DNA of 64,000 nucleotides from a virus: the IMG/VR virus record IMGVR_UViG_3300037408_000506; one strand, given 5' to 3'. Numbering within the stretch: the first letter of the stretch is position 1; every line of letters begins with the position of its first letter. The position numbers were made by a program, and so were the translations under genes. Positions 3,937 through 61,067 of this stretch are shown here, piece by piece. The notes beneath the pieces are model-generated. The model did no database searches and was not told the DNA's origin. It was given only the letters and a program-made list of their open reading frames with translations.

Positions 3937-5493
3937 ATGGCGCAGGCGAGCAATACCGGACGATTCCAGTGGCCGATCCCGCCGTGGAACGCCGACTGGC
4001 AGAAGTGGCAGCAGATGTTCGGGACGTTCGCCCACGGGGTGGACGCCTGCGTCTTCGGCATCCTGGAGCACATCACGGTGCTCGCCAAGACGCTCCCGAG
4101 CGCGGTGATCATCGACCCGGGGACGCATGTGTTCGCGCAGAACGCGGCGGCGGTCTTCGTCTCGCGGACCCTGCACACCCAGATCAGCGTGGGGCCGACG
4201 GCCCTGACGTTGATTCCGGGCGCCCTGGTGGGGGCGAGCCTCCAGCCGGGGGCGGTGGGGCCGCAGCAGGTGGACTGGGAGCTGTACGACGGCTCCACGC
4301 CCATCGACCCGTCGATTGTGGTGTTCGGCGTGGTCGGGGACGACTATGCGATCCGCTGGTACAATGGGGCGCGGCTGCCGCTGGGCACGGCCATGGTGCT
4401 GTTCGACTTCCCGGGCGGGAGCGGGCCGGGCGGGGGTTTGGACCCAGCGCCGTTCCTGACGCTATCGGTGAACACGGTCCTGACCGAGGCGCAGAACGGG
4501 CAGTACTTCGAGACGTACAATGTCGGGGGCACGGTGCGCGTGACGCTGCCGACCGATCCCACGGACGGCATGCAGTACACGGTGTGCGCGGGGCCGAACA
4601 CGACCACCATCCTGGCGGCGGGCGGATCGAACGGCATCCTCTGGCCGCAGTCCACGGTGGGAGCGCCCCTGGTGCCGGACCTGCGGGCGTTGACGACGGG
4701 GCCGAATCCGGTGCGCCTGACCGTGACGGCGAAGGATCTGACGGCCCTGGGGGTGGCGGAGATCGCGTGGATCGCGACGTCGGCGACGGGGCTGTGGACC
4801 GACGCGGTGAGCGGCAAGGCGTTCGACTTCAGCTTCCCGGTGACGGTGGGCAGTGGCCTGCTGATGGACGACGCACTGGTGGGGGCGAAGACGGTGGGCG
4901 GGGCGCTGGCGCTGGTCCGGGATGCGGCGGCGGTGACGCCCTTCCGGTTGCAGTGCGAGGGCGACACGCACCTGAGCAGCGTGGACATGACGGTGACGCG
5001 AACCCAGGTTCGCGCCCTGCTGGAGAGCTACCACGGGTCGACCTCGGTGGCCCCGGTGACGTTCACGGTGAACACCACGGGGTTCGCCCCGGTGGCGGAC
5101 GACGGCTGGATCGCCACGTTCAAGGTGGGGGCCAACTCGGCGGGGGCGCCGGTGCCGATCCTGGTCCAGAACGAGGGCGCGGTGGCCCAGATCGCGGTGG
5201 GGGCCGCCCGGTTCGTCCACAGCATCGCGTGCGCGCAGTTGGGCGCGACGGTGCATCTGCGCTATACGGGCAACCCGCTGAGTTCGCGGGGCCAGTTCCA
5301 GGTCATTGCGGGGTCGGGCACCTGGACGGACAACCTGGGGGGGACGCATGTGTTCGACGCGATCAGCGCGTTGAGCGGCGTCGTCAATCCCAACGGGGTG
5401 GTGACCGGCATCCTGGGGCAGTCGTACTACCAGACCGGGGTGGGGGTGTTCTGGATCAACGTAGACGGCAGCACGGAATGGATCGTACAGTAG
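3937..5493 (+). CDS. Putative tail fibre/minor tail protein
   Basis: 518 aa, V/T/G-rich; VTLPxxPTDG fibre motif; C-terminal NPNGVVTG module shared with 5547..6692; CAGGAG SD. Confidence 0.6.
   Translation: MAQASNTGRFQWPIPPWNADWQKWQQMFGTFAHGVDACVFGILEHITVLAKTLPSAVIIDPGTHVFAQNAAAVFVSRTLHTQISVGPTALTLIPGALVGASLQPGAVGPQQVDWELYDGSTPIDPSIVVFGVVGDDYAIRWYNGARLPLGTAMVLFDFPGGSGPGGGLDPAPFLTLSVNTVLTEAQNGQYFETYNVGGTVRVTLPTDPTDGMQYTVCAGPNTTTILAAGGSNGILWPQSTVGAPLVPDLRALTTGPNPVRLTVTAKDLTALGVAEIAWIATSATGLWTDAVSGKAFDFSFPVTVGSGLLMDDALVGAKTVGGALALVRDAAAVTPFRLQCEGDTHLSSVDMTVTRTQVRALLESYHGSTSVAPVTFTVNTTGFAPVADDGWIATFKVGANSAGAPVPILVQNEGAVAQIAVGAARFVHSIACAQLGATVHLRYTGNPLSSRGQFQVIAGSGTWTDNLGGTHVFDAISALSGVVNPNGVVTGILGQSYYQTGVGVFWINVDGSTEWIVQ
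4998..5013. promoter_or_regulatory. 16-bp palindrome copy 1 (inside CDS)
   Basis: GCGAACCCAGGTTCGC, encoded within TRTQVR of 3937..5493. Confidence 0.7.
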
Positions 5494-5546
5494 CGTAAAG
5501 TTACACGGTTCCCGGCAATGTCGCCGGGCCACAAAGGAGTTCACCA

Positions 5547-6692
5547 ATGGCAGGGTTCACCAGTCCGTATCGCTACCACAATTTCATCGGCAATCACGTA
5601 GACGCAGCAGCCGCCACCACGTTCTTCCAGACCACCCTGGGCTGGGGCACGCTGGGCGCAGCGGTCGGCCTCGGCGTCACCTACTGGGATGACACCGACG
5701 CGCTGCTCAAGGTCTGGGACGGATCGGCCTGGTCCGCCATGGAGGCCGCGACCCCGACCCTGAGCGAGGTGCTCACGGCGGGCGCGGACGCAGGTGCGAC
5801 CACCATCACCAATCTCGGCGCACCGACTCTCGCCGACGACGCGGCGACCAAGGCGTACGTGGATAGCGTGGCCACGGGCCTCATGTGGAAGCCCCCGGTC
5901 CTCGTGATCAATATGGTGAGCGACGCCGATCAGGGTGCCGCTGACCCGACAGGGATGTCAGCAGGCGACTGCTACGTCGTGAACAACTGGGCCACCGAGG
6001 ATGATGGTGACATCGTAGAGTGGAGTGGCACCGCGTGGGTACTGATCCAGGCCAACACGGCGGGCGAGCCTGCCGATGGCACCCGCGTGGTCGTGAAGGC
6101 GACCGGTGGGGCCGGATCGTTCGCGACCCACGGCAAGAAGATCGCGACCTACAACGCCACCACGGACACCTGGGCAGTCGAGGCCCCGGCAGACGGTTGG
6201 GCGGCGCTCGTCACAGGCAACGGCGGCATCTGGAGCGACACCGGCTGGACCTACAACGGCACCGACTGGGTGCAGTTCACAGGCGCGGGCCAGATCAACG
6301 CGGGTTCCGGTCTCACCAAGACCGGCAACACCCTGAACGTCGGGCGCGGCGACGGTATCTCGGTCGGCAACGACACCGTGAACGTCGACCTGACCGCCAG
6401 CAACCCCGGCTTGGAGCTGACCGGCACCTCGGGCAGCAAGACCCTGCAAGTCCAGGCGGACGGCGCCCACGGTATCGTGCGCGGCGCGTCCGGCGTCGAG
6501 ATCGAGCTGGCGGCCACGGCGGCCAAGGGCGGCCTGGTCGTCGACTCCGATGGCGTGCGCTCGATGCAGTTCAACGCGGGCAACCCCAACAGCGTCGTGA
6601 CCGGCGTGCTGGGCGAGTTCTGCCTGGATACCACCAGCAAGGTGCTCTACGTCTGCACGACGGCGGGCAGCGCGAACTGGAACGTGGTCTGA
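5547..6692 (+). CDS. Virion fibre/decoration protein, paralog of 24792..26174
   Basis: AATKAYVDSVATGLMWKPPVL...WVQFTGAGQINAGSGLTKTGNTL phage fibre block; AAGGAG SD. Confidence 0.7.
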   Translation: MAGFTSPYRYHNFIGNHVDAAAATTFFQTTLGWGTLGAAVGLGVTYWDDTDALLKVWDGSAWSAMEAATPTLSEVLTAGADAGATTITNLGAPTLADDAATKAYVDSVATGLMWKPPVLVINMVSDADQGAADPTGMSAGDCYVVNNWATEDDGDIVEWSGTAWVLIQANTAGEPADGTRVVVKATGGAGSFATHGKKIATYNATTDTWAVEAPADGWAALVTGNGGIWSDTGWTYNGTDWVQFTGAGQINAGSGLTKTGNTLNVGRGDGISVGNDTVNVDLTASNPGLELTGTSGSKTLQVQADGAHGIVRGASGVEIELAATAAKGGLVVDSDGVRSMQFNAGNPNSVVTGVLGEFCLDTTSKVLYVCTTAGSANWNVV

Positions 6693-6707
6693 CGAGTTCG
6701 GGAGCTT

Positions 6708-6768
6708 GTGGGGTCGGGTAGGCTGTCTCTTCTGCTTTTCTCCTCGGGCTACCCGGCCCCACCTTTTT
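6708..6768 (+). terminator. Intrinsic terminator-like hairpin
   Basis: 14-bp stem GTGGGGTCGGGTAG (6708-6721) / CTACCCGGCCCCAC (6749-6762) with one G-U pair, followed by CTTTTT; unusually long pyrimidine-rich loop. Confidence 0.6.
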
Positions 6769-6791
6769 GCGCTGCGCGATGAGGTGCCTGC

Positions 6792-9700
6792 ATGAGTTTG
6801 ACCATGCCCTACGGGCAGAACCACTACATGGGCGAGTGCGCCACCGAGTCGGCGGCGCTGGTCTGGATTCGCGACAACAAGTGGGACAGCGCGGGGAACG
6901 GTACCGGCAATCCGCAGGCGGGCATGGCCTTCTTCGATACGGGGGCGACCAAGCTCAAGGTGCATGACGGCAGCGCGTGGGTGGCGCTGGGATCGGCCAC
7001 GCCCGGTGGGTCGTCGGGACAGATTCAGTACAACAACAGTTCGGCGTTCGGTGGGGCCTCGCAGTTGTACTGGGACAGCGGGAATGCGGGCTTGGCCTAT
7101 GGCAAGACCACGGTGGACGGATCGCGGATCGATGTGGTGACGGTCGAGGGGACGTATCCGTACCAGGCGACGATGCACGGCAGCAATCAGTCCTATGGCT
7201 GCTTCGTGTCGATTCGCAAGGCGCGGGGCTCGCAGGGGTCGGAGACGACCGTGGCCGATGGCGATCCCATCGGTGGGGTTTCGTTGCGAGCGTATGGGTC
7301 GGCGTATACGACGGTGGCCGCGATCAAGGCCACGGTCAGCGGCACGGTGTCCGGGAACAACATCCCGACCAAGTTGGAGTTGCAGACGCACAATGGCACC
7401 GCGTTTGATACGCGGGTGCTCATTACCGCCGCAGGCAAGGTGGGCATCGCCAATGCGTCCCCCGTGGCGTTGCTCGCGTTAGGCACGGCGGGAACGACAG
7501 CGGGCTCGCTGAGCCTGGCCGGGGCCACGAGCGGCACCTGTACGATCCAGGTGGCGGCGGCAGCGGGCACGGTCACGTTCCAGTTGCCCTCGACTAACGG
7601 GACGAACGGGTACTACCTCCAGACGAACGGGAGCGGGGTGACGTCGTGGGCGCAGGTGACGGCCGCCGCAGCGGGCAGCACGGGCTACGTGCAGTTCAAC
7701 AATGCGGGCGCACTGGCGGGAGACGCGGCGTTCTTCTGGGACAACACCAACAAGCGACTGGGCATCGGCTGCACCGATCCGGTCAATGCGGTGGAGATCA
7801 GCAAGGACACGGCGAACACGTCGATGTTCGCGAGCGTGTTCAGCAGTTCAACGAACTATGCCAGCGTCTATGTGCAGCGCGGCAGGGGGACGAGAGCGTC
7901 AAAATCGGCAGTGCAATCGGGCGACCGACTGGGGCAGTTTGGCTTCGCCGGATATTACGATACGTCCGGCAACTACGGGTGTGCGTTCGTCGCGGCCTAC
8001 GCCACGGAGAACTGGGGGGCCGGGGCGCGAGGGTCGGATCTGCGGTTTGAGGTGACGGCAGCGACGACGGCGACGGTGTCCGAGCGCATGCGGATCACGA
8101 GTGCGGGCAATGTGTTCATCGGCACGACGGCTGGCGTCAGCGTTGGAGCGACGACCCAGACGCATCCGTTGATCGTATACGGGACGGATGCTACCCCGCA
8201 ATTCAACGGGATCATCAGCGAAGGCGGGGCCTGTCCGGGGCGGTTCAATGGTCACAGGCACAACGGGACATATGGTACTAAAACGGCAGTGGCCACGACA
8301 CAGAATATATTGGCCATCAATGCGCTAGGCTGGGATGGCGGGACAACACCGACTTATGTAAATGCAGCGGCTATCTCCTTTACAGTTGATGGCACGGTGG
8401 CCGAGGATTCCGTTCCTGGCAAAATCATCTTCTACACTCGTGAGGTGGGGAACACGGTCGGTCCTTACGAGCGCATGGTGATTACGAATGCGGGTAGGGT
8501 TGGTATTGGAAACAATGCCCCTAGTGCGATGCTCACGCTTGGTACGAATGGCATTATCTCTGGAGCCATTGATCTGTTGGGCGCGACCAGCGGCACCTGC
8601 ACCGTTCGTGTGGCAGCGGTGGCAGGCACGAGCACGGTCTTCCAGCTACCAGTGACCAACGGAACGAACGGGTATTTTCTCAGGACGGATGGGACAGGCG
8701 TGACGAGTTGGGCGGCGGTCTCCGCTACGCCAGCGGGGAGCAACACGCAGGTCCAGTACAACAACAGCGGAGCGTTTGGAGCGTCGGCGAACTTCACGTT
8801 TTCAGGGACGACGCTCACGGTCGGCGGGGACAGCGCGTTGGCCTACTCGTATGTGGAGTGCTACGGCACATCCTATACCCCGAGTGCCGTCACACGGCGG
8901 GGGCGGGGATCGCGAGCGACCCCAACGGCGGTGAACAGTGGCGACGTCCTGGGTGTCGTGAACTGGCAGGGACACGATGGGAGTGGGTGGGGCAACGCGG
9001 CCTTCATCCAGGCGAACGCGGAGAACAACTTCTCCGGGAGCTACCACCAGGCGAGCCTGCTGTTCTACATGATGAACGGCGTGAGCCAGACGGAGCGGAT
9101 GCGGCTGACGAGCGCGGGCAAGCTGGGCATTGCCAACGTCTCGCCGAGCGCCCTGCTCACGTTGGGGACAGCCGGGACCACGGCGGGCACATTGAGCCTG
9201 GCGGGGTCAAGCAGCGGGACGTGTACGGTCCAGGTCGCAGCGGCGGCAGGGACGACGACGTTCCAGTTGCCCGCCAGCAATGGGACGAACGGGTATTTCC
9301 TCCAGACGAATGGGTCGGGCGTGACGACGTGGGCGGCTGCATCGGTGACGCCCGCAGGATCGAACTACCAGCTTCAGTATTACAACAGCGGCGCGTTTGG
9401 AGCGTCGGCCAACCTCACCTGGGATGGCACGTCCAGGTTGTACGTGTACGGGGATGGGAACTACGCGACGGTTGAGACGTGGTGTTACGCGACGGGGACA
9501 ACAACCGCTGCGATCCATGGGTACTACAGGTTCAATGGCTCGAAGTCCTCGTACAGCGCCGTGACGACGGGAGACATCTTAGGCGAAGAGTTGTTCCATG
9601 GGTCGTACAATGCCTCTTCCTACGCTGTTGGGTGGCGCGTGGGAGCGGTGGCGAAGTCGTCGTGGTCGTCAGGGAATCAGCCGAGCTATTTCCGGTTCAT

Positions 9701-11210
9701 TGCGCGGGCAGATGGCACGACCGATGTCCAGATCATGCGTTTGGATTACCAGGGCAACGTGGCCATCGGGACGCACACGACGGCGACGGAGCGCTTGGAC
9801 CTCCAGGACGGGTCCGCCAACGGGGCAATCCGGGTGGGCAATACGGCGAGTAGTAACGCGGGCACCATCAAGTACACGAGCAACACGTTCAGCGGCTACA
9901 ATGGGTCGTCTTGGGTCAACTTCGGTGCCGGTGCCCCAGCGGGCAGCACGGGCTATGTGCAGTTCAATAATGCGGGGGCGTTTGCGGCAGATGCGGCATT
10001 GTTTTGGGACAACACGAATAAACGTGTAGGCATTGGAACGGTCAGTCCAAGCGCTCCAATCCATGTTTATTCTAGTGGTGCGACGAATCCACTGCATCAG
10101 GTGCAGTTGGAGGCACAGACGACGGCGGGGAATGGTGGACAGGTACTCTTGCAGACGTCGCGGGCGGCTGGAGCGGCTTCGCAGTCGGGAGACTACATCG
10201 GTGGGATCAAGTGGCAGGGGCGGAATACGACTCCCGCCTACTCCAATAGCGCAGCGGTGTTCGGTCTAGTCGATGCGAGTCCGACTGCGTCTGCGGTGCC
10301 GACAGCGATCACGTTTTGGACGATGAATTCCAGTGCGAGTTGGGCAGAACGTTTGCGTATTTCTAGCGATGGCAAGGTTGCCACGGGGGCCGAGAGCGCG
10401 CCCGACGTCGATCCCGGTGGCCTCTGCATCCACCATGGAGCCAACGATGGGTATCCGCTGACGTTCAAGAACAGCGACGTCAACCATCCGTTCACGGCGA
10501 TCTGCGAGGCGGACACGTATCTCCGCACCAACAAGACGGATTCCGCCGCAGGTGGCGCGAATTTCGTCGGACTGGGCACAGGCACGGGCGGCATTGGCCT
10601 CTTGCTGGGAGGGGCCAACTCGAACCCCGTGAGTGGCACGTCCGATGGGTGTGTTTGCATTGTTGGGTACAAGAGCAACGGGACGACGGGGTTTGCGGCG
10701 TTGGCCGCGACGGAGAACTTGGCGGCCTTCCGTAGCTACACGACGACGCAGGTCATCATCAAGGGGTCGGGCGACATCCACACCGTGGCCGGATTGAAGA
10801 TCGGGGCCTATGGCCAGACAGCGGCGGCGGGGGCCATCGAATGGAACGGCACCAATTTCCGAGGGTACACGGGGAGCGCGTGGAAGAACTTGGACGCGGG
10901 CGGGGCCACGGTGGACGCGGGCACGGCCCAGGGCCAGGTCTTGTTCTGGAACAACGCGGGCAGCGCGTGGACCTACGCGGAGACCTCGGAGTGGGTCTGG
11001 GATGACACCAACAAGCGGGTGGGCATCAACGAGGCAGCCCCCAGTTCGCGCCTGGACGTGGGCGGGGACGTGGAGATCGCCAGCAACGGCTGGCACTACT
11101 ACGGTGATCCGAGCACGGATGGGTCATGGCGCACGGGGCGGGTGAGTGCGGATCTGGTGGTGCAGAAGCGGGAGAGCGGCACCTGGAATACGAAGCACAC
11201 GTTCTCGTGA
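6792..11210 (+). CDS. Long modular tail fibre protein 1
   Basis: 1472 aa, G/S/T/A-rich; repeated ...NGYxLxTNGSGVTSW...QxNNxGAF... shaft modules alternate with ERMRIxSxGxVGIG beta-domains typical of phage fibres. Confidence 0.85.
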   Translation: MSLTMPYGQNHYMGECATESAALVWIRDNKWDSAGNGTGNPQAGMAFFDTGATKLKVHDGSAWVALGSATPGGSSGQIQYNNSSAFGGASQLYWDSGNAGLAYGKTTVDGSRIDVVTVEGTYPYQATMHGSNQSYGCFVSIRKARGSQGSETTVADGDPIGGVSLRAYGSAYTTVAAIKATVSGTVSGNNIPTKLELQTHNGTAFDTRVLITAAGKVGIANASPVALLALGTAGTTAGSLSLAGATSGTCTIQVAAAAGTVTFQLPSTNGTNGYYLQTNGSGVTSWAQVTAAAAGSTGYVQFNNAGALAGDAAFFWDNTNKRLGIGCTDPVNAVEISKDTANTSMFASVFSSSTNYASVYVQRGRGTRASKSAVQSGDRLGQFGFAGYYDTSGNYGCAFVAAYATENWGAGARGSDLRFEVTAATTATVSERMRITSAGNVFIGTTAGVSVGATTQTHPLIVYGTDATPQFNGIISEGGACPGRFNGHRHNGTYGTKTAVATTQNILAINALGWDGGTTPTYVNAAAISFTVDGTVAEDSVPGKIIFYTREVGNTVGPYERMVITNAGRVGIGNNAPSAMLTLGTNGIISGAIDLLGATSGTCTVRVAAVAGTSTVFQLPVTNGTNGYFLRTDGTGVTSWAAVSATPAGSNTQVQYNNSGAFGASANFTFSGTTLTVGGDSALAYSYVECYGTSYTPSAVTRRGRGSRATPTAVNSGDVLGVVNWQGHDGSGWGNAAFIQANAENNFSGSYHQASLLFYMMNGVSQTERMRLTSAGKLGIANVSPSALLTLGTAGTTAGTLSLAGSSSGTCTVQVAAAAGTTTFQLPASNGTNGYFLQTNGSGVTTWAAASVTPAGSNYQLQYYNSGAFGASANLTWDGTSRLYVYGDGNYATVETWCYATGTTTAAIHGYYRFNGSKSSYSAVTTGDILGEELFHGSYNASSYAVGWRVGAVAKSSWSSGNQPSYFRFIARADGTTDVQIMRLDYQGNVAIGTHTTATERLDLQDGSANGAIRVGNTASSNAGTIKYTSNTFSGYNGSSWVNFGAGAPAGSTGYVQFNNAGAFAADAALFWDNTNKRVGIGTVSPSAPIHVYSSGATNPLHQVQLEAQTTAGNGGQVLLQTSRAAGAASQSGDYIGGIKWQGRNTTPAYSNSAAVFGLVDASPTASAVPTAITFWTMNSSASWAERLRISSDGKVATGAESAPDVDPGGLCIHHGANDGYPLTFKNSDVNHPFTAICEADTYLRTNKTDSAAGGANFVGLGTGTGGIGLLLGGANSNPVSGTSDGCVCIVGYKSNGTTGFAALAATENLAAFRSYTTTQVIIKGSGDIHTVAGLKIGAYGQTAAAGAIEWNGTNFRGYTGSAWKNLDAGGATVDAGTAQGQVLFWNNAGSAWTYAETSEWVWDDTNKRVGINEAAPSSRLDVGGDVEIASNGWHYYGDPSTDGSWRTGRVSADLVVQKRESGTWNTKHTFS

Positions 11211-11214
11211 GGAC

Positions 11215-11230
11215 GCGAACCCAGGTTCGC
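11215..11230. promoter_or_regulatory. 16-bp palindrome copy 2
   Basis: GCGAACCCAGGTTCGC in the 36-bp gap between the two long fibre genes. Confidence 0.8.
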
Positions 11231-11246
11231 CTGGTGAGGAGTACCG

Positions 11247-14200
11247 ATGGGCATTCAGTACGATAGCGCGAACAATCAGGTGGTCTTCAGCGGGGATGCC
11301 TATGTGAAGCGGACGGCGGCGGGCGCGGTGCAGGTGGGCAACGCCACGACCGGGCCGGTGTTCTCGGATCATGCGTTGTTCACGGCGATCACGGCACCAG
11401 CGACTCCGGCAGCGGGCAAGGGGCGGTTGTACACGGCGGGGGCCAGTGGGTCGGAGGAGTTGTACTGGCTGAACAGTGGGGGCAGTGCGAAGAGTCTGTC
11501 TGCGCCGACACCGCCCAGCGGCGACACCAAGGTGATCTACAACGACGGCGGGGCCTGGGCCGCAGCGGACGTCTACTACACCAAGGGCAACGGGTATCTC
11601 GGGGTGGGCCAGGCCACGCCGGGCGAGCGCCTGCACCTCAAGGACGGTTCGGGCAACGGCGCGGTCGTGCTCGGGGCGCACCAGAACGCGACGGCCATCG
11701 CGGGCACCGTGGAGTGGACGGGGACGGCGCTGCGCTGGTACGACGGGTCGGTTTGGAAGAGTGCGGGCATCGAGCTGACCGATCCGTTGCTGTACAAGGG
11801 GGTCATCGACTGCTCGACGAACCCCAACTATCCGGCAGCGGACGCGGGGTTCACCTACCGCATCAGCGTGGCGGGCAAGATCGGCGGGGCCAGCGGGCCG
11901 AACGTCGAGGCGGGCGACATGCTGGTCTGCCATGTGGATGGGTCCGCAGCGGGCACCCACGCCGTCGTGGGGGCCAACTGGGACATCCTCCAGATCAATT
12001 TGGACGGGGCGGTGATTGGACCGACGAGCGCGACGGATTCGGCGGTCGCGCTGTTCGATTCGACGACGGGGAAGTTGATCAAGAACTCGCTGGTCACGAT
12101 TGACGGGAGCGGGTCGGTTAACATTCCGAGCGGGCAGAGCTACAAGATCAATGGGACCGCGTTGACGGCGGCGAACGTGGGGGCGGAGCCGACGTTGCCG
12201 TTGAGTACGCGAGGAGATCTGCTCTACCGCAACGCGAGCAACGTGACGGCGCGGTTGGCTGTGGGGACGAACGAGCAGGTGATCACGACGAACGGGACCG
12301 ACGTATCCTGGGGGGCGGTGCCAGGGCGGCACGATGCCGTGACGTTGGCGACGTCAGCGACCACGGGCGGGCTTGGCCTGTCTACGCAGGAGATCAGCTT
12401 CCAGGCGGCGTCAGGGTCCACGAACGGGTATCTGACGAGCACCAACTGGACCACGTTCAACAGTAAGGTGAGCGGGGCGGCGGGTAGCAACACCGAAATC
12501 CAGTACAACAGCAGTGGTGCGTTCGGGGCTGATAGCAATCTTGTCTGGGACAACAGCAATAAGCGGTTGGGCGTGGGGACGACGCCCAGCTACCGTCTGC
12601 ATGTGGTGTCCGCGACCGGATCAGCGGCGTGGGTGACGAACGCGGACACGGCAGTGTCGATAGGGACGGCGGCCTCTGGGCTGTCGTTGCAGAACTCCGA
12701 TAGCACGACGGACAACTTCACCAACATCTCGTTTCGAGATGCCGTGTCGGCGACGGGCGGCATCTACATGCAGAACGTCGATCAGACGAACCACTACGGC
12801 AAGTTCCATGTCGTCATGCGCGGGGCAGACGGTTGGCTCTCGCGAGTGATCGTGACCAATGACGGCAAGGTGGGCATCGGAACATCAAGTCCTGATACAC
12901 GACTTGAGGTAAGTGGCGGCCTAGTAAACATTGCATATTCTGGAGCAGATGGTGCATTTAATGAGATTTTCAGATCGCAAATTGCAGGAAATGTTGGAGT
13001 TTCAAATTGGCGCAATTCGATATGGAGTTCCGTTTCCAGTACCCCTTCAGCTTCTAAGTTAAAGTTTGCATTATGTTCATCGCAGACGACACAGGTCGAT
13101 GTGATGACGTTGTGTGGCAATGGTCGCGTAGGCATTGGGAACACAGCGCCCTCGTACATCCTGCATACGTCGGTCGATGGGCGTGGCGACGTCCAGTTCG
13201 ACTCGCACAGCGCCTCGGACGATGGGACGTTCTTGTGGTTGCGGCGGAGCGGCGGTACGCAGGCGAGTCCGGCAGCGGTGCCATCGGGGCATCGGTTGGG
13301 GAACATCGCCTTCGCAGGGTACTATGATGCGTCCAATTCGAGTTGGGGTGCCGTGATCCAGTCCATGGCCTATGGGCTGTGGTCGGCTACGAATCGCGGA
13401 GCCTGCCTGCAATTCTACACGACGACCACGGGCACGACCGCACTGACCGAGCGCATGCGGATCATCGACAACGGGTACGTGGGGATCGGAGCCACCGCGC
13501 CCGATGCGAAGTTGCAGGTTAATACCTGGGCCGAGAGCAATGTCGTAGGAAATACGCCGACCGTCCTGGTTTGGGGCAACGTGGGCATGTCCGATACATC
13601 CGAGACGGTGCTGCGCTTGCAGCGGCCTGTGGTGAATGGGACGTCGTACAACGGCGGCGTTGACTTCAACATCTACAGGTACAATACGAGCGGAGTTTCG
13701 CCATACACGCAGATGAACATCGCGTTGAAGGCGGTGGCATCGTATACGCAGACGGCCACGGTCAACGTGATCTCGATGCGAGATACCGGGAATGTAGGCA
13801 TCGGCAACGTCGCGCCAGACACGTTGCTCACCTTGGGCACGGTGGGATCGACGGCGGGGGCGATCAAGATCGCGGGTTTGACCAGCGGGACGTGTACGGT
13901 GCGTGTCGCAGCGGCGGCGGGAAGCGGTACGATCTTCGAGTTGCCCGCGACCAATGGCACCGATGGGTACGTCCTGAAGACCAACGGGTCGGGGGTGACG
14001 AGTTGGGTGGCGGCAAGTGGGGGATCGCCAGGGGGCAGTGACACCTATGTGCAGTACAACAATGCGAGTGCCTTCGGGGGCATGGACACCTTCCGGTGGA
14101 GTGCCAGCACGTTCAAGCTGATCTTGGGGAAGGTGGGACAGGCGGCGAATGTGCAGTTGGCGGGAAGCACGTCTGGGACGGTGGACATTGCGGCACCAGC

Positions 14201-19903: not shown

Positions 19904-19920
19904 TCAGATGGAGGTGTTGC

Positions 19921-20286
19921 ATGTTCCTGCGTAAACTCTCTGCTGGGAGTGTCGAGGCATTGTGCATGGCGTGCCAGGTGTGGAGTGAGTATGCGTTGGT
20001 GGATATGAAGGCGGCCAATCGGTCGGTATCCTTCCCATCGTGTCCGGCCTGTCACAAGGTCAGGTTACAGGTCAACGTCACGGCGGGGCCGATTGCCAAG
20101 GTTGGCGAGGCGGCCTTGTCACAGGCATGGATCAAAGCGTTGCATCGACAGCTCATCGTCGATGGGCATACGGCGGCGATTTATAGCGCGGAGAAGGTCG
20201 CGCCTGACGCGCATGATGGTGCGGTCGATTGGCCGACTGGCGATGCTGTTGTGGATTTCGTCGTGACTCCAGTTAGCGAGCCATAG
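19921..20286 (+). CDS. Hypothetical protein with CxxC pairs
   Basis: GGAGG SD before ATG 19921; CMAC and CPAC zinc-ribbon-like pairs. Confidence 0.5.
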   Translation: MFLRKLSAGSVEALCMACQVWSEYALVDMKAANRSVSFPSCPACHKVRLQVNVTAGPIAKVGEAALSQAWIKALHRQLIVDGHTAAIYSAEKVAPDAHDGAVDWPTGDAVVDFVVTPVSEP

Positions 20287-20288: not shown

Positions 20289-20304
20289 GCGAACCCAGGT
20301 TCGC
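20289..20304. promoter_or_regulatory. 16-bp palindrome copy 3
   Basis: GCGAACCCAGGTTCGC, 2 nt after the TAG at 20286. Confidence 0.8.
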
Positions 20305-23587: not shown

Positions 23588-23832
23588 TGGGCATCAAGGC
23601 ACAGCCGCAGCAGCCAACTCACGCGAACCCCGGTTCGCCCGCGCCGCCGGTCGCCTCGGACGCGCAGGCGCTCACGATGGAGGACGCGCTGGTCATGGTG
23701 ATCTTCCCGCAGGCGACGTGGGATGCCGTGGTACAGTTGGCGACGGAGCTGCACGTTGCCCCGGCCGAGGCGCTGGGCGCGGCGATCAAGCTGCTCCGGG
23801 CGCGGGTGGACGAGGAGACGGGTCACGGATGA
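23587..23832 (+). CDS. Small hypothetical protein
   Basis: ATG overlaps the upstream TGA; 81 aa. Confidence 0.5.
   Translation: MGIKAQPQQPTHANPGSPAPPVASDAQALTMEDALVMVIFPQATWDAVVQLATELHVAPAEALGAAIKLLRARVDEETGHG
23623..23638. promoter_or_regulatory. 16-bp palindrome copy 4 (variant, inside CDS)
   Basis: GCGAACCCCGGTTCGC (CC spacer). Confidence 0.65.
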
Positions 23833-39689: not shown

Positions 39690-39699
39690 GAGCGCTGAC

Positions 39700-44183: not shown

Positions 44184-44199
44184 GCGAACCCGGGTTCGT
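44184..44199. promoter_or_regulatory. 16-bp palindrome copy 8 (variant)
   Basis: GCGAACCCGGGTTCGT. Confidence 0.7.
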
Positions 44200-51097: not shown

Positions 51098-51113
51098 GCG
51101 AACCTGGGTTCGT
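51098..51113. promoter_or_regulatory. 16-bp palindrome copy 9 (variant, reverse)
   Basis: GCGAACCTGGGTTCGT. Confidence 0.7.
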
Positions 51114-51746: not shown

Positions 51747-51883
51747 ATCCAGATGCGTATTGCGTAGCATGTGGCGGGCACGCTAGGATGGCGCGGCTAT
51801 CGATCCTGGCAGATCGATGTTTACTCGGAGATCCACGTGGGAGTAAGGGATGGGGTTGGACTGGGGGCGTGAATCTCGGCGAT

Positions 51884-51920
51884 AAAAAAAAGGCCGTCCA
51901 GCGCAGCACACCGGACGGCC
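51884..51920 (-). terminator. Hairpin, minus-strand intrinsic terminator
   Basis: A8-GGCCGTCC-N13-GGACGGCC (perfect 8-bp stem, T8 on the minus strand). Confidence 0.6.
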
Positions 51921-51943
51921 TCAAACGAAAGGACGTGACGTGC

Positions 51944-53731
51944 ATGGATAGCAATGGAACCAGGCTGAGGCAAGCGGGAACGGACAAGGGGAGTGCGAAA
52001 CCGGCGGAGCGGATCGTCGATACGTTGAATCTGGGGCAGTACGGCGTCACGCACCGTGTGGAGGACGGCCAGCGGTGGTGGAACCTGCGGGAGATGTTGC
52101 AGCATCTCGGGTACACGCTCGATTACAATCCGCCGCACGTGGAGGGGGCCCACAAGCGGTTCTTTGCTGTCGAGACGAACCGGGGGCAGCAGCCATATCT
52201 CTACCTGTCCGATGCGGGCATCATCCGGTTCCTGGAGCGGTTGCACAAGAAGAAGGCCCGATCCTTCCGGAACCAGATCGCGGCAGCCCAGGTGGTCGTT
52301 CCGCAGGGGGGCTCCGATCCCATCCCGCAGGCGCCGTCGAGGCCCGTCCCGCAGGAAACCGCTGCACCATCAGTGCCCCGGACAGCCGCATCCGCGAAGG
52401 TTCTCGATCCGGTCGATTTCCATGGGCAGCGACTGACCCTGGTGGATCGGGAGGGGGAACCCTACGTGGCGATGCGGTATGTCGTCGAGGGGATGGGGTT
52501 GGACTGGAAGGCTCAGCATGCGAAGTTGACCAGCGACAATAGTCGTTTCTGCGTGGCGATGATCCGAATGCAGCCTTGGGGGGACTCGCAAGTGCGCGAA
52601 GTTACGTGCATTCCATTGCGAAAGCTGGCCGGATGGCTGTTCACCTTGCAACCGTCGCGGATCAACCTGTTCGTCGCCGACAAGGTGCGGAGGTACCAGG
52701 ACGAGTGCGATGGCGTACTCCAGTCGGCCTGGTCTCGATATGTGGCGAAACAGACCCCAGCGAGCAACGACGCCGCAACGACGCTGAAATCATTGTCGTT
52801 TGAGGACCATCCCGTGCGGATTCAGATGATCGATGGCGAACCGTGGTGGGTGGCGAAGGATGTGGCGGAGATGTTGGGGTATATCTGGAACGGAAGTTCA
52901 CGTATCGAGCATGTTCCTGAAAAATGGAGGGGGGTCACATCCGTTGTGACCCCCTCTGGAAACCAACAAATGGCTTTGTTATCCGAGCAGGGCCTTTACT
53001 GGTTCCTGGCGCGGAGTGACAAGCCGCGAGCGTTGCCCTTCCAGGAGTGGATCGCGGGCGAGGTGTTGCCGAGCATCCGTCGCACGGGACGCTACAGCGC
53101 GTTCCCAGAAGATCCAACGAGGATGGGGTTGCCGGACTTCACCGATCCCATCGCGGCAGCGGAAGGGTGGCTGGCCGAGGCCAAGGGTCGGCGCAAGGCT
53201 GAGATCGAGGCGCGAGCGGCCAAGGAGCGGGCACACATCCTCGCGGCCAAGCTGGCGGAGGACGCTCCATTGGTGGACTTCGCGGAGCGTGTGGAAGCCT
53301 CCCCGACGACGCATCTGGTCGGAGCCGTGGCCAAGATGATCCAGCAGGGTACGGGGATGCCGATGGGGCAAAACCGGCTGTTCGAGTGGTTGCGCGAGAA
53401 CCGCTACCTGCATCAGACGGGGAGCCGCACGAATCAGCCGACTCAGCGCAGCCTGGACCAGGGCTGGTTCGTGTTGCAGGTGCGCAACGTGGAGATTCGG
53501 GATGAATCCCGCGTGAAGTACACGACCCGCGTCACGGGCAAGGGGCTCCTGCACTTCTACGAGCACTTCTACCGGACGGCCATCGAGCTGGGGCTCAAGC
53601 CGCGCGTGCGCCCGGAGCTGGTCACGTCGGCGGAGGTGTTGCGCCAACTACCCCTCTGGGCCGACGAGGATAGTGACCAAGTGGACGAGGATCTTCTCAA
53701 GGAAGCCAAGCGGCGGGTGCCAAAGCCCTAG
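51944..53731 (+). CDS. Phage antirepressor (P22 AR-N + Bro-N + KilA-C/ANT domains)
   Basis: VDFHGQRL...GEPYVAMRYVVEGMGLDWKAQ; SFEDHPVR...GEPWWVAKDVAEMLGY; APLVDFAE...MGQNRLFEWLRE...PTQRSLDQGWF. Start placed at 51944 (AAAGGA SD), downstream of the hairpin. Confidence 0.9.
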   Translation: MDSNGTRLRQAGTDKGSAKPAERIVDTLNLGQYGVTHRVEDGQRWWNLREMLQHLGYTLDYNPPHVEGAHKRFFAVETNRGQQPYLYLSDAGIIRFLERLHKKKARSFRNQIAAAQVVVPQGGSDPIPQAPSRPVPQETAAPSVPRTAASAKVLDPVDFHGQRLTLVDREGEPYVAMRYVVEGMGLDWKAQHAKLTSDNSRFCVAMIRMQPWGDSQVREVTCIPLRKLAGWLFTLQPSRINLFVADKVRRYQDECDGVLQSAWSRYVAKQTPASNDAATTLKSLSFEDHPVRIQMIDGEPWWVAKDVAEMLGYIWNGSSRIEHVPEKWRGVTSVVTPSGNQQMALLSEQGLYWFLARSDKPRALPFQEWIAGEVLPSIRRTGRYSAFPEDPTRMGLPDFTDPIAAAEGWLAEAKGRRKAEIEARAAKERAHILAAKLAEDAPLVDFAERVEASPTTHLVGAVAKMIQQGTGMPMGQNRLFEWLRENRYLHQTGSRTNQPTQRSLDQGWFVLQVRNVEIRDESRVKYTTRVTGKGLLHFYEHFYRTAIELGLKPRVRPELVTSAEVLRQLPLWADEDSDQVDEDLLKEAKRRVPKP

Positions 53732-53733: not shown

Positions 53734-53773
53734 GACGTCTGGACGTCTGGACGTCTGGAAGTCTGGACGTTTG
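53734..53773. repeat. Five tandem 8-bp repeats GACGTCTG
   Basis: GACGTCTG x3, GAAGTCTG, GACGTTTG. Confidence 0.9.
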
Positions 53774-53783
53774 GGGTTGGAAC

Positions 53784-53799
53784 GCGAACCCAGGTTCGC
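53784..53799. promoter_or_regulatory. 16-bp palindrome copy 10
   Basis: GCGAACCCAGGTTCGC, 3 nt upstream of a TTGACA -35. Confidence 0.85.
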
Positions 53800-53802: not shown

Positions 53803-53831
53803 TTGACAAACACGGGCGTGGCGGTTAGATT
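53803..53831 (+). promoter_or_regulatory. sigma70-type promoter
   Basis: TTGACA-N17-TAGATT. Confidence 0.75.
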
Positions 53832-55286: not shown

Positions 55287-55524
55287 GCAGATCTGGTTGT
55301 TCGATCCTGGGCCGGTCACGGAGAGCGTGCGGCTCCTCGACCGGCGCATGTTGGTGCGCGAGGTCTGCCGTCACGCGCGATCTCGCCTGCTGCGCCACGT
55401 GGCCGACGGCCTCGGGATCAGCTACTCGACGTTCCTACGATGGCGCCGGGACGATCCGGCGCTGAACCCGCTCCTCGATGTGGTGCGGGATCGCAAGCGG
55501 GCGGCGCGGCGCGGTAGACGTTGA
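55270..55524 (+). CDS. Helix-turn-helix DNA-binding protein
   Basis: LRHVADGLGISYSTFLRWRRDDP HTH pattern. Confidence 0.7.
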   Translation: MPPTSEQIWLFDPGPVTESVRLLDRRMLVREVCRHARSRLLRHVADGLGISYSTFLRWRRDDPALNPLLDVVRDRKRAARRGRR

Positions 55525-55549
55525 CAAACGCCCTGGCCTGGGGGATATT
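55521..55549 (+). promoter_or_regulatory. sigma70-type promoter (weaker -10)
   Basis: TTGACAAACG...N17-GATATT. Confidence 0.5.
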
Positions 55550-55579
55550 CGGGGGGTCCAAACGTCACCTGGAGGGTCT

Positions 55580-56230
55580 ATGGATTTGGAAACGCAGGGC
55601 GAGGGGGCGCTGATGGCCCACTGTCAAAGTCGCATCGACCTGACGGCGGCGCCGATCTCGGCCTCCGCTCCCCCCGTCGACGAGATGCAGTTGCGCCAGG
55701 AGTGGCGGACGCCGCCCAAGTTCCTGGCGGCGCTCTCGCGGGAGTTCGCCATCGGGGTGGACGTGGCGTCGAGCGACGACAACGCCGTGGCGCGCAACCA
55801 CCTGACGCGGGAGATGGACGGCCTGTCCCGGTCGTGGTTCCGCCTGGAGGACGCGGGGCATGTGGTGCATTACCCGCGCGTGGCCTGGTGCAATCCGGGC
55901 TTCAAAGATCTCGGCGCGTGGGTGGCCAAGGCGATCCAAGAGGTGGACGCGAACCCGGGGTGCGTCGCCCTGATCATGGGCACGGCGGCCCCGTCCACGA
56001 TCTGGTGGGCGCGGGCGCTGGCGGCGGGGGCGGAGATTCGCCTGCTCGCCCCGCGCGTGCAGTTCGTGGCTCCGCCGGGCATCAAGCAATCGAGCAATGC
56101 GCGCGAGAACGCGCTGGTCATCATCCGGAGCCAGGTGGGCGGCGCCGCAATCATGCGGGAGCGCCGGGCGCATATCTGGACGTGGCGGTGGGACGCCGAG
56201 GCGGCGCTCACCAACAGCGAGGAGTCATGA
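55580..56230 (+). CDS. Phage N6-adenine DNA methyltransferase (lambda-Dam-like family)
   Basis: EWRTP...DVASSDDNA...DGLSRSW...WCNPGF...AWVAKA...IRLL..RVQF; catalytic motif is NPGF rather than NPPY/F. Confidence 0.75.
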   Translation: MDLETQGEGALMAHCQSRIDLTAAPISASAPPVDEMQLRQEWRTPPKFLAALSREFAIGVDVASSDDNAVARNHLTREMDGLSRSWFRLEDAGHVVHYPRVAWCNPGFKDLGAWVAKAIQEVDANPGCVALIMGTAAPSTIWWARALAAGAEIRLLAPRVQFVAPPGIKQSSNARENALVIIRSQVGGAAIMRERRAHIWTWRWDAEAALTNSEES

Positions 56231-56859: not shown

Positions 56860-57246
56860 ATGAATCGAGATGACACCGACAAGATCGTGACGTTGGAGGA
56901 AGTCCGCGCCCAGATCCGGGAGCGGGAGGCGGAGCTGGCGCGGCTGCACGGGGACGTCGATCCGACCCACGCGGTGGGGCGCGTGCAGGCCCGGGACGAG
57001 GCCCTGGAGCGGATGTGCGTGGCGCTCCAGTACCTCCAGAACTCCCTGGGCGAGGTGCAGGCCACGCGGGCCCGCCTGGACCTGGAGCGCGGGACCATCC
57101 TGCGCGAGCTGCGGGACACCCGGGCGCGGGCGGAGACGCTGGACGCGGAGTTGCGGAGCGTGCGGTTGGCCCACCGGGAGGTCGACCGCCAGATGGAGAC
57201 TCATGAGCCCGACGATCCTGACGCAGCGCCTCCGGGCGCTCGCTGA
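56860..57246 (+). CDS. Coiled-coil hypothetical protein
   Basis: Heptad-rich. Confidence 0.5.
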   Translation: MNRDDTDKIVTLEEVRAQIREREAELARLHGDVDPTHAVGRVQARDEALERMCVALQYLQNSLGEVQATRARLDLERGTILRELRDTRARAETLDAELRSVRLAHREVDRQMETHEPDDPDAAPPGAR

Positions 57247-57655
57247 GCACCCCTCCACCCCGCCCGAGGAGCGCGACAGCGCCCTGCGGCGCCTGGCGGA
57301 GCTGGAGGCCAAGTCCACCCCGCCGCCTCCGGCACCAACGGTGCGCGCGAAGTTGGGCCGGGTCCGGGCGCGGCCCGTGGTCCGGGGGCTCCCCGTGCGC
57401 TGGCCCTTTGGCTGGGACGGCCCGCGTCTGCCCGTGGAGCGCGAGGTTGCCGGGGACGGACGTGGGGGCATCGCCGTGGGCTGGAAGTGCCCGTCCTGCG
57501 GGGGACAGGTCGAGCGGATCCTGTCGCGGGCGGACATCACCCGGATGTCGCCCCCCGGACGGGAAAGCCTGGTCCAGCCGCACATCACCCACATGGTTGA
57601 CGGGACCATGAACCAGCTCTGCTTGGCGTGCTGGGATCGCTGGGAGGCGTTCTGA
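57203..57655 (+). CDS. Hypothetical protein, DUF2786-like N-terminus plus CxxC
   Basis: RLRALAEHPSTPPEERDSALRRL; CPSC...CLAC. Confidence 0.5.
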   Translation: MSPTILTQRLRALAEHPSTPPEERDSALRRLAELEAKSTPPPPAPTVRAKLGRVRARPVVRGLPVRWPFGWDGPRLPVEREVAGDGRGGIAVGWKCPSCGGQVERILSRADITRMSPPGRESLVQPHITHMVDGTMNQLCLACWDRWEAF

Positions 57656-57656
57656 G

Positions 57657-57672
57657 GCGAACCCAGGTTCGC
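57657..57672. promoter_or_regulatory. 16-bp palindrome copy 11
   Basis: GCGAACCCAGGTTCGC, 1 nt after the stop and 14 nt upstream of a -35. Confidence 0.85.
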
Positions 57673-57686: not shown

Positions 57687-57714
57687 TTGACAAACGCAGT
57701 AGGCGGGTTAAATT
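57687..57714 (+). promoter_or_regulatory. sigma70-type promoter
   Basis: TTGACA-N16-TAAATT. Confidence 0.7.
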
Positions 57715-58756: not shown

Positions 58757-58759
58757 GAG

Positions 58760-60068: not shown

Positions 60069-60456
60069 GCGCGAGACGCTGCTGGCGGCGATGCGCGAGA
60101 CGATGCAGGCGGCGAACGCGCGGCTGGCGTGCCTGCACTGCGGGGTCAGCGGGGGCATGGCGCTCCAGTTGGCGGACGGGCGCCTCGTGCGGGCCTGCGA
60201 GTCGTGCCTGCGGATGGATTTCCTGATCGATTGGGCGCGGGGCGAGCGGGTCTTCGAGGTGGCCGGGGCCGATGCCCAGGAAAGGGGGGATCAGTTGTGC
60301 CGGTGCCATATGTGCGGCGTCGTGGAGCGTTGCACGCCGGAGGCGGATTTCTACGGCCTTGAGGGGGAGCGTCTTGTCTGCGAACGGTGCTTGCCAGCGC
60401 AGATTGGGTTATCGGGACCGTTGGTGCGGCAGGAAGGACCAGACGATCATGGGTAA
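60055..60456 (+). CDS. Multi-CxxC hypothetical protein
   Basis: CLHC, CESC, CHMC, CERC. Confidence 0.5.
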   Translation: MTTNRRETLLAAMRETMQAANARLACLHCGVSGGMALQLADGRLVRACESCLRMDFLIDWARGERVFEVAGADAQERGDQLCRCHMCGVVERCTPEADFYGLEGERLVCERCLPAQIGLSGPLVRQEGPDDHG

Positions 60457-60649
60457 CACGATCCCGACGATGCTGGACCGTTGTGCGGACGGCGTGTACC
60501 GGGAGCACGCCCTGGACGACGTCTCGGTGTCGCCGCTGTATCGGTTGCGCGTGTGCGAGATCTGCGACTCGGAGTTCCGGGCGACCCATCGCAACCAGCG
60601 GAGGTGCCCGCTGTGCGAGGATGTTGCGTCCGTTTCCAGAGCGCGCTAG
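60449..60649 (+). CDS. Zinc-ribbon hypothetical protein
   Basis: CEIC...CPLC. Confidence 0.5.
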   Translation: MGNTIPTMLDRCADGVYREHALDDVSVSPLYRLRVCEICDSEFRATHRNQRRCPLCEDVASVSRAR

Positions 60650-60658
60650 CATGGGGGC

Positions 60659-61027
60659 ATGCCGAAGAAACTGCCACCCAACCCAGACGACCTGCCGGTT
60701 CTTCAACCCGTGAAAAGCTCCAACGTCTACGCGATTGGGTACAGCATCCGCGATCAGAAGCTGTTCGTGCAATTCCGGGTAGCCGGAACGGAACGCCCCG
60801 CACCAGGCGCCCTCTACCGTTACGATAGCGTCCCGATTGCGGTGTGGCGGCGGTTCAAGGATGCCAAGAGCAAGGGGCACTTCCTGGCCGCGCACATCAA
60901 GGGCACCTACTGGTACATGCGCTGGACGGGCCGCACGTGGAGGGCCGAGACCGCCCTGCGGTTCGACTCGTCGAAGAAGAAGCGGATGCGGCAACAGGCG
61001 ATCAAGCTGCGTGACAGTACCAGTTGA
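60659..61027 (+). CDS. KTSC-domain protein
   Basis: PVKSSNVYAIGY...LFVQF...LYRY..VP..VW..F..AKSKG.F....IKG.Y. Confidence 0.85.
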   Translation: MPKKLPPNPDDLPVLQPVKSSNVYAIGYSIRDQKLFVQFRVAGTERPAPGALYRYDSVPIAVWRRFKDAKSKGHFLAAHIKGTYWYMRWTGRTWRAETALRFDSSKKKRMRQQAIKLRDSTS

Positions 61028-61051
61028 CAAACGACCCCCAATGGGTAGGAT
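61024..61051 (+). promoter_or_regulatory. sigma70-type promoter
   Basis: TTGACA-N16-TAGGAT. Confidence 0.7.
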
Positions 61052-61067
61052 GCGAACCTGGGTTCGC
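61052..61067. promoter_or_regulatory. 16-bp palindrome copy 12 (reverse), abutting the -10 box
   Basis: GCGAACCTGGGTTCGC begins directly after TAGGAT, over the expected start site. Confidence 0.85.

Follow-up and report, generated by a model that had tools for sequence, protein, structure and literature searches.

A 16-bp palindrome, GCGAACC-NN-GGTTCGC, recurs along a 64-kb stretch of viral DNA (IMG/VR record IMGVR_UViG_3300037408_000506; we refer to the whole stretch of 64,000 nucleotides as the window), and comparison with related phages shows that it is a real element under strong selection. The way in which its two halves vary from phage to phage suggests that the palindrome is a recognition site in double-stranded DNA for a symmetric protein specific to the phage lineage, a conclusion that we consider probable. 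A role for such a protein in punctuating or insulating transcription at gene boundaries, and in regulating one conserved early promoter from an ordinary operator, is a more tentative suggestion, and for the explanation as a whole (a symmetric phage protein on double-stranded sites that punctuates transcription) we see about an even chance. Protein binding, the encoding of the binder by the phage and the effect of binding are all things that we infer from the comparisons set out below.

Ten copies in the window match the palindrome exactly and two more carry a single mismatch, where none would be expected by chance; the 12 positions listed in the initial annotation, which was made from the letters of the window alone, were all correct. 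Exact matches to GCGAACCNNGGTTCGC numbered 10 in the window and 0 in 100 dinucleotide-preserving shuffles, which bears out the earlier view that the repeat is not a chance one, and nine of the sites are indeed identical, reading exactly GCGAACCCAGGTTCGC on one strand or the other. The two mismatched copies, at 44184 and 51098, came from a mismatch search and have T in place of the final C on the + strand, and a doubtful site with two mismatches at 47007 was excluded from the count. Ten of the 12 sites lie, as first annotated, in gaps between open reading frames (ORFs) close to a stop codon, the distance past the stop being 1-67 nt; the exceptions are the copy at 4998, which lies in an ORF, and that at 51098, the coding context of which is ambiguous. 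Six of the 10 gap sites stand 11-18 nt ahead of the next start codon.

The first copy (4998-5013, reading GCGAACCCAGGTTCGC; no strand is assigned to this or any other copy) falls inside a 518-amino-acid (518-aa) ORF at 3937-5493 and has orthologous copies in three relatives, G001, G002 and G005. The second (11215-11230), likewise with orthologous copies in those three, separates two giant tail-fibre-like genes, lying 4 nt past the TGA of ORF 6792-11210; it is followed by a ribosome-binding site and, after 16 nt, by the ATG at 11247. The copy at 20289-20304 is 2 nt past the TAG of 19876-20286, and an 807-aa gene opens 13 nt beyond it with the ATG at 20318. Two copies stand in wide gaps and have orthologues in G002: that at 23623-23638, with CC at its centre, is 35 nt past the TGA of 22757-23587 in a gap of 302 nt, and that at 26242-26257 is 67 nt past the TAG of 24792-26174 in a gap of 286 nt. 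At 34535-34550 the palindrome lies 9 nt past the TGA of 33653-34525 and 18 nt before the next ATG, and marks an indel junction. The copy at 38740-38755 has TG at its centre, stands between the TGA of 38283-38723 (16 nt away) and the ATG at 38768 (12 nt away), and has orthologues in G001 and G002. So do the two mismatched copies: that at 44184-44199, reading GCGAACCCGGGTTCGT (last C to T), is 3 nt past a TAG and shares its T with both orthologues, and that at 51098-51113, reading GCGAACCTGGGTTCGT, lies upstream of an antirepressor-like gene (51788-53731). The remaining three copies each adjoin a predicted promoter. Those at 53784-53799 (52 nt past the TAG of 51788-53731) and 57657-57672 (1 nt past the TGA of 57203-57655) lie 3 and 14 nt, respectively, upstream of the -35 element, that at 53784 belonging to an early-type promoter, and that at 61052-61067 directly follows a -10 element, with the start codon of a conserved 72-aa gene (ATG at 61079) 11 nt further on.

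The window belongs to a novel T4-like myovirus of a deep branch, and wetland metagenomes are the source of its DNA. Its GC content is 64.6%, its GC skew is positive throughout and essentially all of its long ORFs lie on the + strand. A near-identity search with a 12-kb stretch of the window found no near relative among cultured phages, tblastn with two window proteins gave nothing useful, and a scan of the 64 kb detected no tRNA genes and no Rfam families. An exact-word scan of IMG/VR, however, showed repeated occurrences of the 16-mer on a small number of large contigs from uncultured viruses, and these contigs align with the window at 75-96% identity. Counts made beyond the window, with one mismatch allowed, gave 32 copies in G001 (168.7 kb, 91% complete), 24 in G002 (133 kb) and 19, 12 and 5 in the relatives G003, G004 and G005, and the reversed control pattern gave 0 in all five. 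In each of four related genomes, this element is the only over-represented palindrome.

The assignment to the T4-like group rests on G001, in which Pfam matches among ORFs beyond the range of the window include a Gp23 capsid protein, T4 portal, gp19 tube and T4 baseplate proteins, prohead protease S77 and RecA- and DnaB-like proteins. Its capsid protein shares no more than 27-31% identity with the capsid proteins of cultured T4-like phages. The whole genome is transcribed in one direction, and the T4-type late promoter TATAAATA is absent from the clade. No Peptidase_S24 domain, the mark of LexA-type repressors, was present in four relatives, and the Pfam scans gave no match to repressor or integrase families (for the G001 scan, among the 25 of 38 families listed), no search having been aimed at integrases; these results lend lysogeny no support. 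Two metatranscriptomes, one from a wetland and one from a sediment, include small pieces of a relative's capsid gene, and their contigs match the portal and capsid region of the lineage at 90-95% identity (approximately 59.4-65.3 kb of G001), showing that relatives appear in field RNA libraries. Over 20 kb of G001 these contigs cover the portal/capsid region only, with 0 motif sites, and for the window stretch itself no metatranscriptome contigs are listed.

The strongest evidence on the nature of the element comes from more distant relatives, which we found by searching IMG/VR with the major capsid protein (MCP). In the window clade (MCP identity to G001 of 94% or more) the motif is GCGAACC-YR-GGTTCGC; at 74-76% MCP identity, as in G006 with 42 copies in 161 kb, it is GCG[A/C]ACA-CG-TGT[T/G]CGC; at 58-67%, in the complete genomes G007, G008 and G009 of 157-195 kb, it is GCGAACT-NN-AGTTCGC; and at ~40%, in G010, there is neither the motif nor any over-represented palindrome. 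The motif type follows the capsid tree over ~35 contigs with GC contents of 44-67%. Positions 7 and 10 switch together between clades, from C..G to A..T to T..A, and these positions could not pair in RNA, because they would close a 2-nt loop. Since all copies change in concert between clades, the reader of the sites would appear to coevolve with the phage, which favors a phage-encoded binder over a host one, as the initial annotation had leaned.

Clade G006 adds a second line of evidence. Its positions 4 and 13 vary independently of each other (A..T 11, A..G 11, C..T 10, C..G 10; Fisher p=1), the half-site reading GCGCAC/GTGCGC being found on the left in 20 of the 42 copies and on the right in 21. 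Half-sites that are equivalent, independent and inverted are what marks recognition of double-stranded DNA by a symmetric dimer. The initial proposal of one dimeric protein acting on all of the sites was thus upheld as far as a symmetric, phage-specific protein is favored, by the concerted half-site changes and the independence seen in G006, and its idea that this protein might silence the whole genome is a hypothesis, a genome-organizing role being weighed below. The inference from G006 carries over to the window clade because the elements are homologous: there are five sites that all four clades have ahead of the same core genes, each with its clade's own type. Among these is the window site at 20289, the orthologues of the 807-aa gene having the site in front in every clade. 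The site at 61052 is conserved ahead of the orthologous gene in three clades, and G007 has a degenerate copy there.

Alignment of one site per orthologous group (35 groups) showed that the conserved footprint is wider than 16 bp, at ~20-22 bp, and can be written (G)-A-S-GCGAACC-YR-GGTTCG(C/T)-S-T. The flanking A at -2 is present in 32 of the 35 groups and the T at +18 in 27. On the coding strand the central dinucleotide is CA in 16 groups, TG in 14, CG in four and CC in one, and the near equality of CA and TG indicates that the site has no orientation relative to transcription. For all 12 window sites G002 has a copy at the orthologous place. The two sets differ at four positions, all of them position 1 or 16, with none of the 144 inner positions changed, against ~25-30% difference in the flanks of the same sites (ungapped comparison).

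Placement along the genome is far from random. Sites are depleted deep inside genes in G001 (9 of 33, where 79% would be expected; p=2e-10) and similarly in G006, G007 and G009 (p of 5e-7 to 2e-10 overall), by gene calls that are crude and probably overcount in-gene sites. Distances cluster at 0-24 nt from stop codon to site and at 11-18 nt from site to start codon, and two arrangements recur. In the first, the stop codon is followed after 0-24 nt by the site and then, after 11-18 nt containing a strong ribosome-binding site, by the start codon; in the second, found in the early region, the order is stop codon, site, 3-40 nt, a TTGACA-N16-18-TAnnnT promoter and the gene. Where the gap is wide, the site lies nearer to the upstream stop codon than to the downstream start codon. 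The sites recur about once per 5 kb, and their spacing is more even than a random choice among gene junctions would give in G001 (coefficient of variation 0.55, p<0.0002) and G007 (p=0.002), a trend that is weaker in G006 and G009.

Between 15 and 40% of predicted TTGACA-N-TAnnnT promoters have a site 3-40 nt upstream of the -35, at no fixed distance, where under 1% would be expected; conversely, only three of the 12 window copies adjoin a promoter, most copies being without a predicted one. A consensus scan places TTGACA-17-TAGATT at 53803-53831 (+ strand), directly downstream of the site at 53784, and TTGACA-16-TAAATT at 57687-57714 (+ strand), downstream of the site at 57657. The third predicted sigma-70-like promoter, TTGACA-16-TAGGAT at 61024-61051 (+ strand), has the reverse order: its -10 abuts the site at 61052, which is in an operator position, covering the expected transcription start, and the same promoter-then-site order (61024-61067) is found in G001 and G006. 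These promoters belong to a sigma-70-like family with the extended -35 TTGACAAAC, represented in the window at 46437, 53803, 55521, 57687, 61024 and 61781. Next to the copy at 53784 we also noted GACGTCTG, five tandem copies of an 8-mer (53734-53774) directly upstream of the palindrome and the promoter at 53803. In G001, a conserved 102-aa protein (1587-1895), which ends in DLGF or DVGF in all four clades, is encoded by a gene that is always preceded by a palindrome copy and then an TTTGACAA promoter; we would guess from its size and hydrophobic C-terminal tail that it is a counterpart of T4 gp33, the clamp-binding late coactivator.

The Pfam scans covered 96 ORFs of the window and most of those of G001 and yielded few DNA-binding domains from which a binder might be chosen. 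Two candidates are conserved in all four motif-bearing clades: a 66-aa ribbon-helix-helix (RHH) protein (RHH_1, E 1.3e-7; 92258-92458 in G001), encoded just upstream of a T4 baseplate gene, and a MerR_1-type winged-helix protein of ~180-200 aa (8321-8926 in G001). Any link between the RHH protein and the motif is a guess. The window has two candidates of its own, a 647-aa protein with P22_AR_N, Bro-N and KilAC domains, encoded at 51788-53731 between the palindromes at 51098 and 53784, and a SWIM-finger protein, but neither is among the ORFs conserved in all four clades. The 72-aa protein encoded after the site at 61052 was dropped, its predicted fold (predicted local distance difference test score, 79) having no significant PDB match and there being no evidence of DNA binding. 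G009 encodes, at 148530-148820, a 96-aa LexA_DNA_bind-only protein (winged helix, E 7e-10) that lacks a protease domain and is absent from the other clades.

On the mechanism that we favor, one sequence-specific, two-fold symmetric (dimeric) protein of the T4-like lineage would read the sites and coevolve with them. Each half-site would consist of GCGAACC and the flanking A two bases out, with the half-site centers about one helical turn apart. Selection would keep the sites at gene boundaries, between a stop codon and the ribosome-binding site or sigma-70-like early promoter that follows, where the bound protein might punctuate transcription by blocking or insulating read-through between neighboring units. 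At the conserved promoter (61024-61051) it would act as an ordinary operator-bound regulator over the transcription start. As a by-product, identical copies of 16-22 bp could serve as junctions for the gain and loss of gene cassettes.

Several points weigh against this explanation. Roadblocks at ~30 places in operons would block the downstream genes too, unless they were weak or timed, and the even spacing fits a genome-organizing role as well as it fits transcription. The genes of both candidate binders, the RHH and MerR-like proteins, lie beyond the window. The motif-less G010 has the MerR-like protein as well, and an ORF of that genome syntenic with the RHH gene has two RHH-like repeats and an HNH-like motif (read by eye), so that presence or absence singles out no binder. 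The window-clade copies are all perfect palindromes and could fold as a stable RNA hairpin, and the case against an RNA element therefore rests on homology with clade G006. In relatives, a few copies are followed by T-runs and then a promoter, in the manner of a terminator.

An alternative that retains the symmetric phage protein and its double-stranded palindrome is that they serve the DNA itself, as regularly spaced sites of anchoring or loading in compaction or packaging, as sites for a topoisomerase, in the initiation of replication or recombination, or in positioning akin to nucleoid occlusion (compare the sites of Noc, SlmA and MatP, or parS), with intergenic placement reflecting only where a fixed 20-bp word is tolerated. 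We regard this as unlikely, though several observations speak for it: the sites are spaced more regularly than if placed at random among gene junctions, some in-gene copies such as that at 4998 are conserved, most sites are far from predicted promoters (with variable distances to the -35 where one is near) and transcription runs in one direction throughout. On the other hand, the 11-18 nt from site to start codon are kept over deep divergence, and one site covers the start of a conserved promoter, both of which look gene linked. The parS-like partition site raised in the initial annotation fared poorly: the palindrome is there, but no ParA was found and no ParA/ParB pair, and ParB was rejected as a partner because ParB_N, undetected in G001, occurs in large ORFs (428-717 aa) of G006, G007 and G009 and also in the motif-less G010.

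Could the element act instead in the transcript, as a 6-bp stem with a 4-nt loop that serves as a terminator, a 3'-end stabilizer or a processing signal, or as the stem-loop half of a promoter early stem-loop (PeSL)? Copies of the window clade do fold stably, at -10 to -13 kcal/mol (z about -4) and at -13.2 kcal/mol with flanks, many stand just past stop codons, and several are directly followed by an early promoter, as in PeSLs (PMC4122927). A double change from G-C to A-T is seen at one orthologous site, and in the window clade the end variant compatible with G-U pairing dominates, G..T outnumbering A..C by 13 to 2 in G001 and by 14 to 3 across orthologous groups. The ratio is reversed, however, in G007 (4:8) and G009 (3:6), and the excess in the window clade is marginal (p about 0.06 by hand calculation), since C>T on the coding strand is 1.64x more frequent per base than G>A genome-wide. 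We dropped it as a wobble signal, because the C>T bias explains much of it and the ratio does not hold in the other clades.

Other features of the sites also argue against a transcript element. Half of the G006 copies have an A.G or C.U mismatch in midstem and are no more stable when folded than shuffled sequence (-5.4 kcal/mol, z -0.6), the matched forms folding at -10 to -12 kcal/mol, and positions 7 and 10, unable to pair, are nevertheless invariant and change symmetrically between clades. Extension of the stem by the flanks was ruled out, positions -1/+17 being complementary no more often than expected (7 of 33 in G001, where 14 were expected), and neither stem nor flanks show covariation. 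The GC-rich hairpin followed by a U-tract that defines an intrinsic terminator was not found, 11 of the 12 window sites having no U-tract and only that at 51098 a T-rich tail, and Rfam gave no match in the window. A role in RNA is thus rather improbable, and the stem-tetraloop alternative of the initial annotation is disfavored, by the concerted changes at positions 7 and 10 and by the independent half-sites of G006.

Signs of recombination are seen at the sites. In G001, a cassette containing a 254-aa ORF lies between two copies (138543 and 139363) where the window (at 34535) and G002 have only one; homology blocks shared with relatives begin or end at 20289, 34535 and 44184, that with G002 beginning exactly at the site at 20289; and G007 has runs of small ORFs, each preceded by a copy. 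Similar observations have been made for the repeats of the mycobacteriophage Corndog (PMC4351075) and for PeSLs (PMC4122927). All of this would fit copies that have no trans-acting reader and persist as selfish or recombination-driven repeats, promoting cassette exchange by short homology. Recombination alone would leave unexplained why the palindromes are so strict, why all 25-40 copies change symmetrically and in concert between clades, why position before the same core genes is retained over 64-76% MCP identity and why orthologous sites lack inner-position changes. We therefore think such an origin quite improbable and take the cassette junctions as a consequence of identical 16-22 bp words rather than the reason for their upkeep.

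The absence of TATAAATA late promoters from the clade invites the thought that a phage-specific middle or late promoter, made up wholly or partly of the motif, has taken their place, the more so as the palindrome and TTGACAAAC are the only strongly enriched words in the intergenic DNA of the relatives and the distance to start codons is short and fixed. The ribosome-binding site, however, begins 0-6 nt after the motif, too close for a start site and leader of the usual kind; the halves are equivalent in behavior and the orientation is random, whereas promoters are directional; and copies also occur inside genes and upstream of sigma-70-like promoters. We consider a promoter function very unlikely.

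Host LexA is no better a prospect. The LexA (Cheo/SOS) box of Firmicutes and Actinobacteria is CGAAC-N4-GTTCG, and the initial annotation was right that all 12 window copies contain this core; indeed GCGAAC-N4-GTTCGC, the core of all clades, contains the Gram-positive-type LexA core as generally known, so that binding by host LexA would tie phage expression to the SOS response, and the LexA_DNA_bind-only protein of G009 might be counted in its favor. Identity with the box nevertheless fell away. Within a genome there is hardly any variation at positions 1-3, 7, 10 and 14-16, but their letters differ from clade to clade, and in G006 the GAAC core is broken in half of the half-sites, which read GCGCAC. 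The sites lie inside structural-gene operons of a T4-like phage that shows no sign of lysogeny, not at SOS-type promoters, and the motif is kept in phages of 44-67% GC, a range that suggests varied hosts. The G009 protein has no homologue in the other clades, and no Peptidase_S24 was detected in the four relatives scanned. We consider this reading, too, very unlikely. A scan of 185,579 bacterial and archaeal species genomes, a collection that may not include the host, listed at least 120 exact matches to the 16-mer, and among these there were only single copies in unrelated taxa, as if by chance, with no sign of a host-wide repeat of the repetitive extragenic palindrome (REP) type.

A number of known systems have features in common with the element. 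The stoperators of the temperate mycobacteriophages L5 and Bxb1 are asymmetric 13-bp sites in one orientation relative to transcription that are bound by the lysogenic repressor, one phage protein thought to block transcription through them. They resemble our sites in that many dispersed copies lie in short intergenic gaps near stop and start codons, but the palindromes are free of orientation and occur in a T4-like phage without sign of lysogeny. The frame of stoperators, repressor and lysogeny in which the sites were first described is not supported, given the T4-like gene set, the lack of Peptidase_S24 in four relatives and the unoriented palindromic sites that are mostly not at promoters. 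The NBS sites of Noc, the SBS sites of SlmA, the matS sites of MatP and the parS sites of ParB are 12-16 bp palindromes bound by dimers, tens of copies being distributed nonrandomly over a replicon; those systems are cellular with known helix-turn-helix partners, whereas here no clear partner was found and placement is tied to gene boundaries. Phage P22 Arc and Mnt read symmetric operators of 17-21 bp as RHH dimers or tetramers, with one or two operators at one promoter. Our lineage likewise has a 66-aa RHH protein and, in the window, a P22-type antirepressor-like gene, but has ~30 sites across the genome. The LexA box has the same core letters and the same dyad geometry, but in the palindrome flanks and center are fixed per genome and clade-specific.

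Closer in kind are two phage elements. Corndog, a Cluster O mycobacteriophage, carries 34 copies of a 17-bp palindromic repeat, TGTTCGGNNNCCGAACA, for which a dimeric regulator was proposed (PMC4351075). Like those repeats, ours has 7-bp inverted repeats with near-invariant arms and a short spacer, is scattered over each genome in more than 30 copies, of which most are intergenic and some lie in genes, has a center without orientation and flanks indels (PMC4351075). The sequence is different, however, the spacer is 2 nt rather than 3, and the phage is a T4-like myovirus rather than a Mycobacterium siphovirus; moreover, neither the switching of specificity from clade to clade nor the independence of half-sites seen here is described in the Corndog report (PMC4351075). 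The likeness is in kind only, the sequences and phages being unrelated. PeSLs come from the same phage group, also consist of a repeated dyad followed by a sigma-70-like early promoter and are associated with indels and cassette exchange, but they are stem-loops of variable sequence, read as terminators and concentrated in hyperplastic early regions (PMC2839356, PMC4122927). Our dyad is invariant in sequence and also found among structural genes, only ~15-25% of copies have a promoter, and in one clade (G006) half of the copies cannot form the stem. The element thus lacks defining features of the LexA-box, stoperator, PeSL stem-loop, terminator and parS families and has those of the Cluster O-type dispersed palindromic repeat (invariant 7-bp inverted repeats, a short spacer, tens of copies, mostly intergenic placement). 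By analogy it resembles the Corndog palindromes and, in its logic, stoperators and PeSLs.

A few further features of the window and its relatives were noted. The two giant ORFs that flank the site at 11215 (1472 and 1687 aa, 6792-16310) have internally repeated segments, the second ending in a Peptidase_S74 chaperone-like domain, and are probably tail fibers. A 264-bp unit is repeated 3.4 times (27739-28642) inside a 759-aa ORF. Many unrelated ORFs between 33779 and 43960 share an N-terminal tag of ~10 aa of the type MRSLIRxLEE, which looks like a capsid-targeting sequence of internal proteins cut by the prohead protease; the extra G001 cassette (138573-139337) begins similarly, with MRRLFERCERR. 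Pfam identified genes for an AdoMet decarboxylase (39667-40296) and a Dam methylase (55478-56230) and, among the small ORFs, a KTSC protein and a Cpn10 (GroES-like cochaperonin), placed by their G001 orthologues at 60659-61027 and 61506-61784; we take the latter to be comparable to T4 gp31. A KhpA-type KH-domain protein is conserved in the relatives. A hint from the ESM Atlas, through the AdoMet decarboxylase cluster, that the host belongs to Methylomirabilota was weak and was not used. In G006 (158244-159135, oriented coordinates), ~11 repeats of GAAGTGGGAT-N9-ATCCCAAC, each a small dyad, lie ~66-82 bp apart with one gap of 227 bp, an array that could be CRISPR-like or iteron-like.

Earlier dispersed palindromic repeats of phages, known from few genomes such as that of Corndog, gave no handle on their reader. 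The present element can be traced through ~35 metagenomic relatives and so amounts to a natural coevolution experiment, with three concerted specificity types, independent half-sites and conserved positions, and these data offer a route to the reader, in which recognition residues are matched against motif type. The element is fairly interesting in that comparison of the genomes opens both reader and function to direct tests, and the motif is a sharp marker by which this uncultured lineage can be recognized in metagenomes. It also bears on how gene expression is organized in a large and very divergent T4-like group that has no canonical late promoter and carries its genes on one strand. At its most far-reaching, and we think this doubtful, ~30 evenly spaced sites and one small protein, perhaps of the RHH type, would make up a punctuation code that divides the genome of ~170 kb into expression or topological domains of ~5 kb and whose protein and sites have switched specificity jointly at least twice. 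If transcription boundaries in these phages do depend on such a protein, this would be a control logic not described for T4-like phages.

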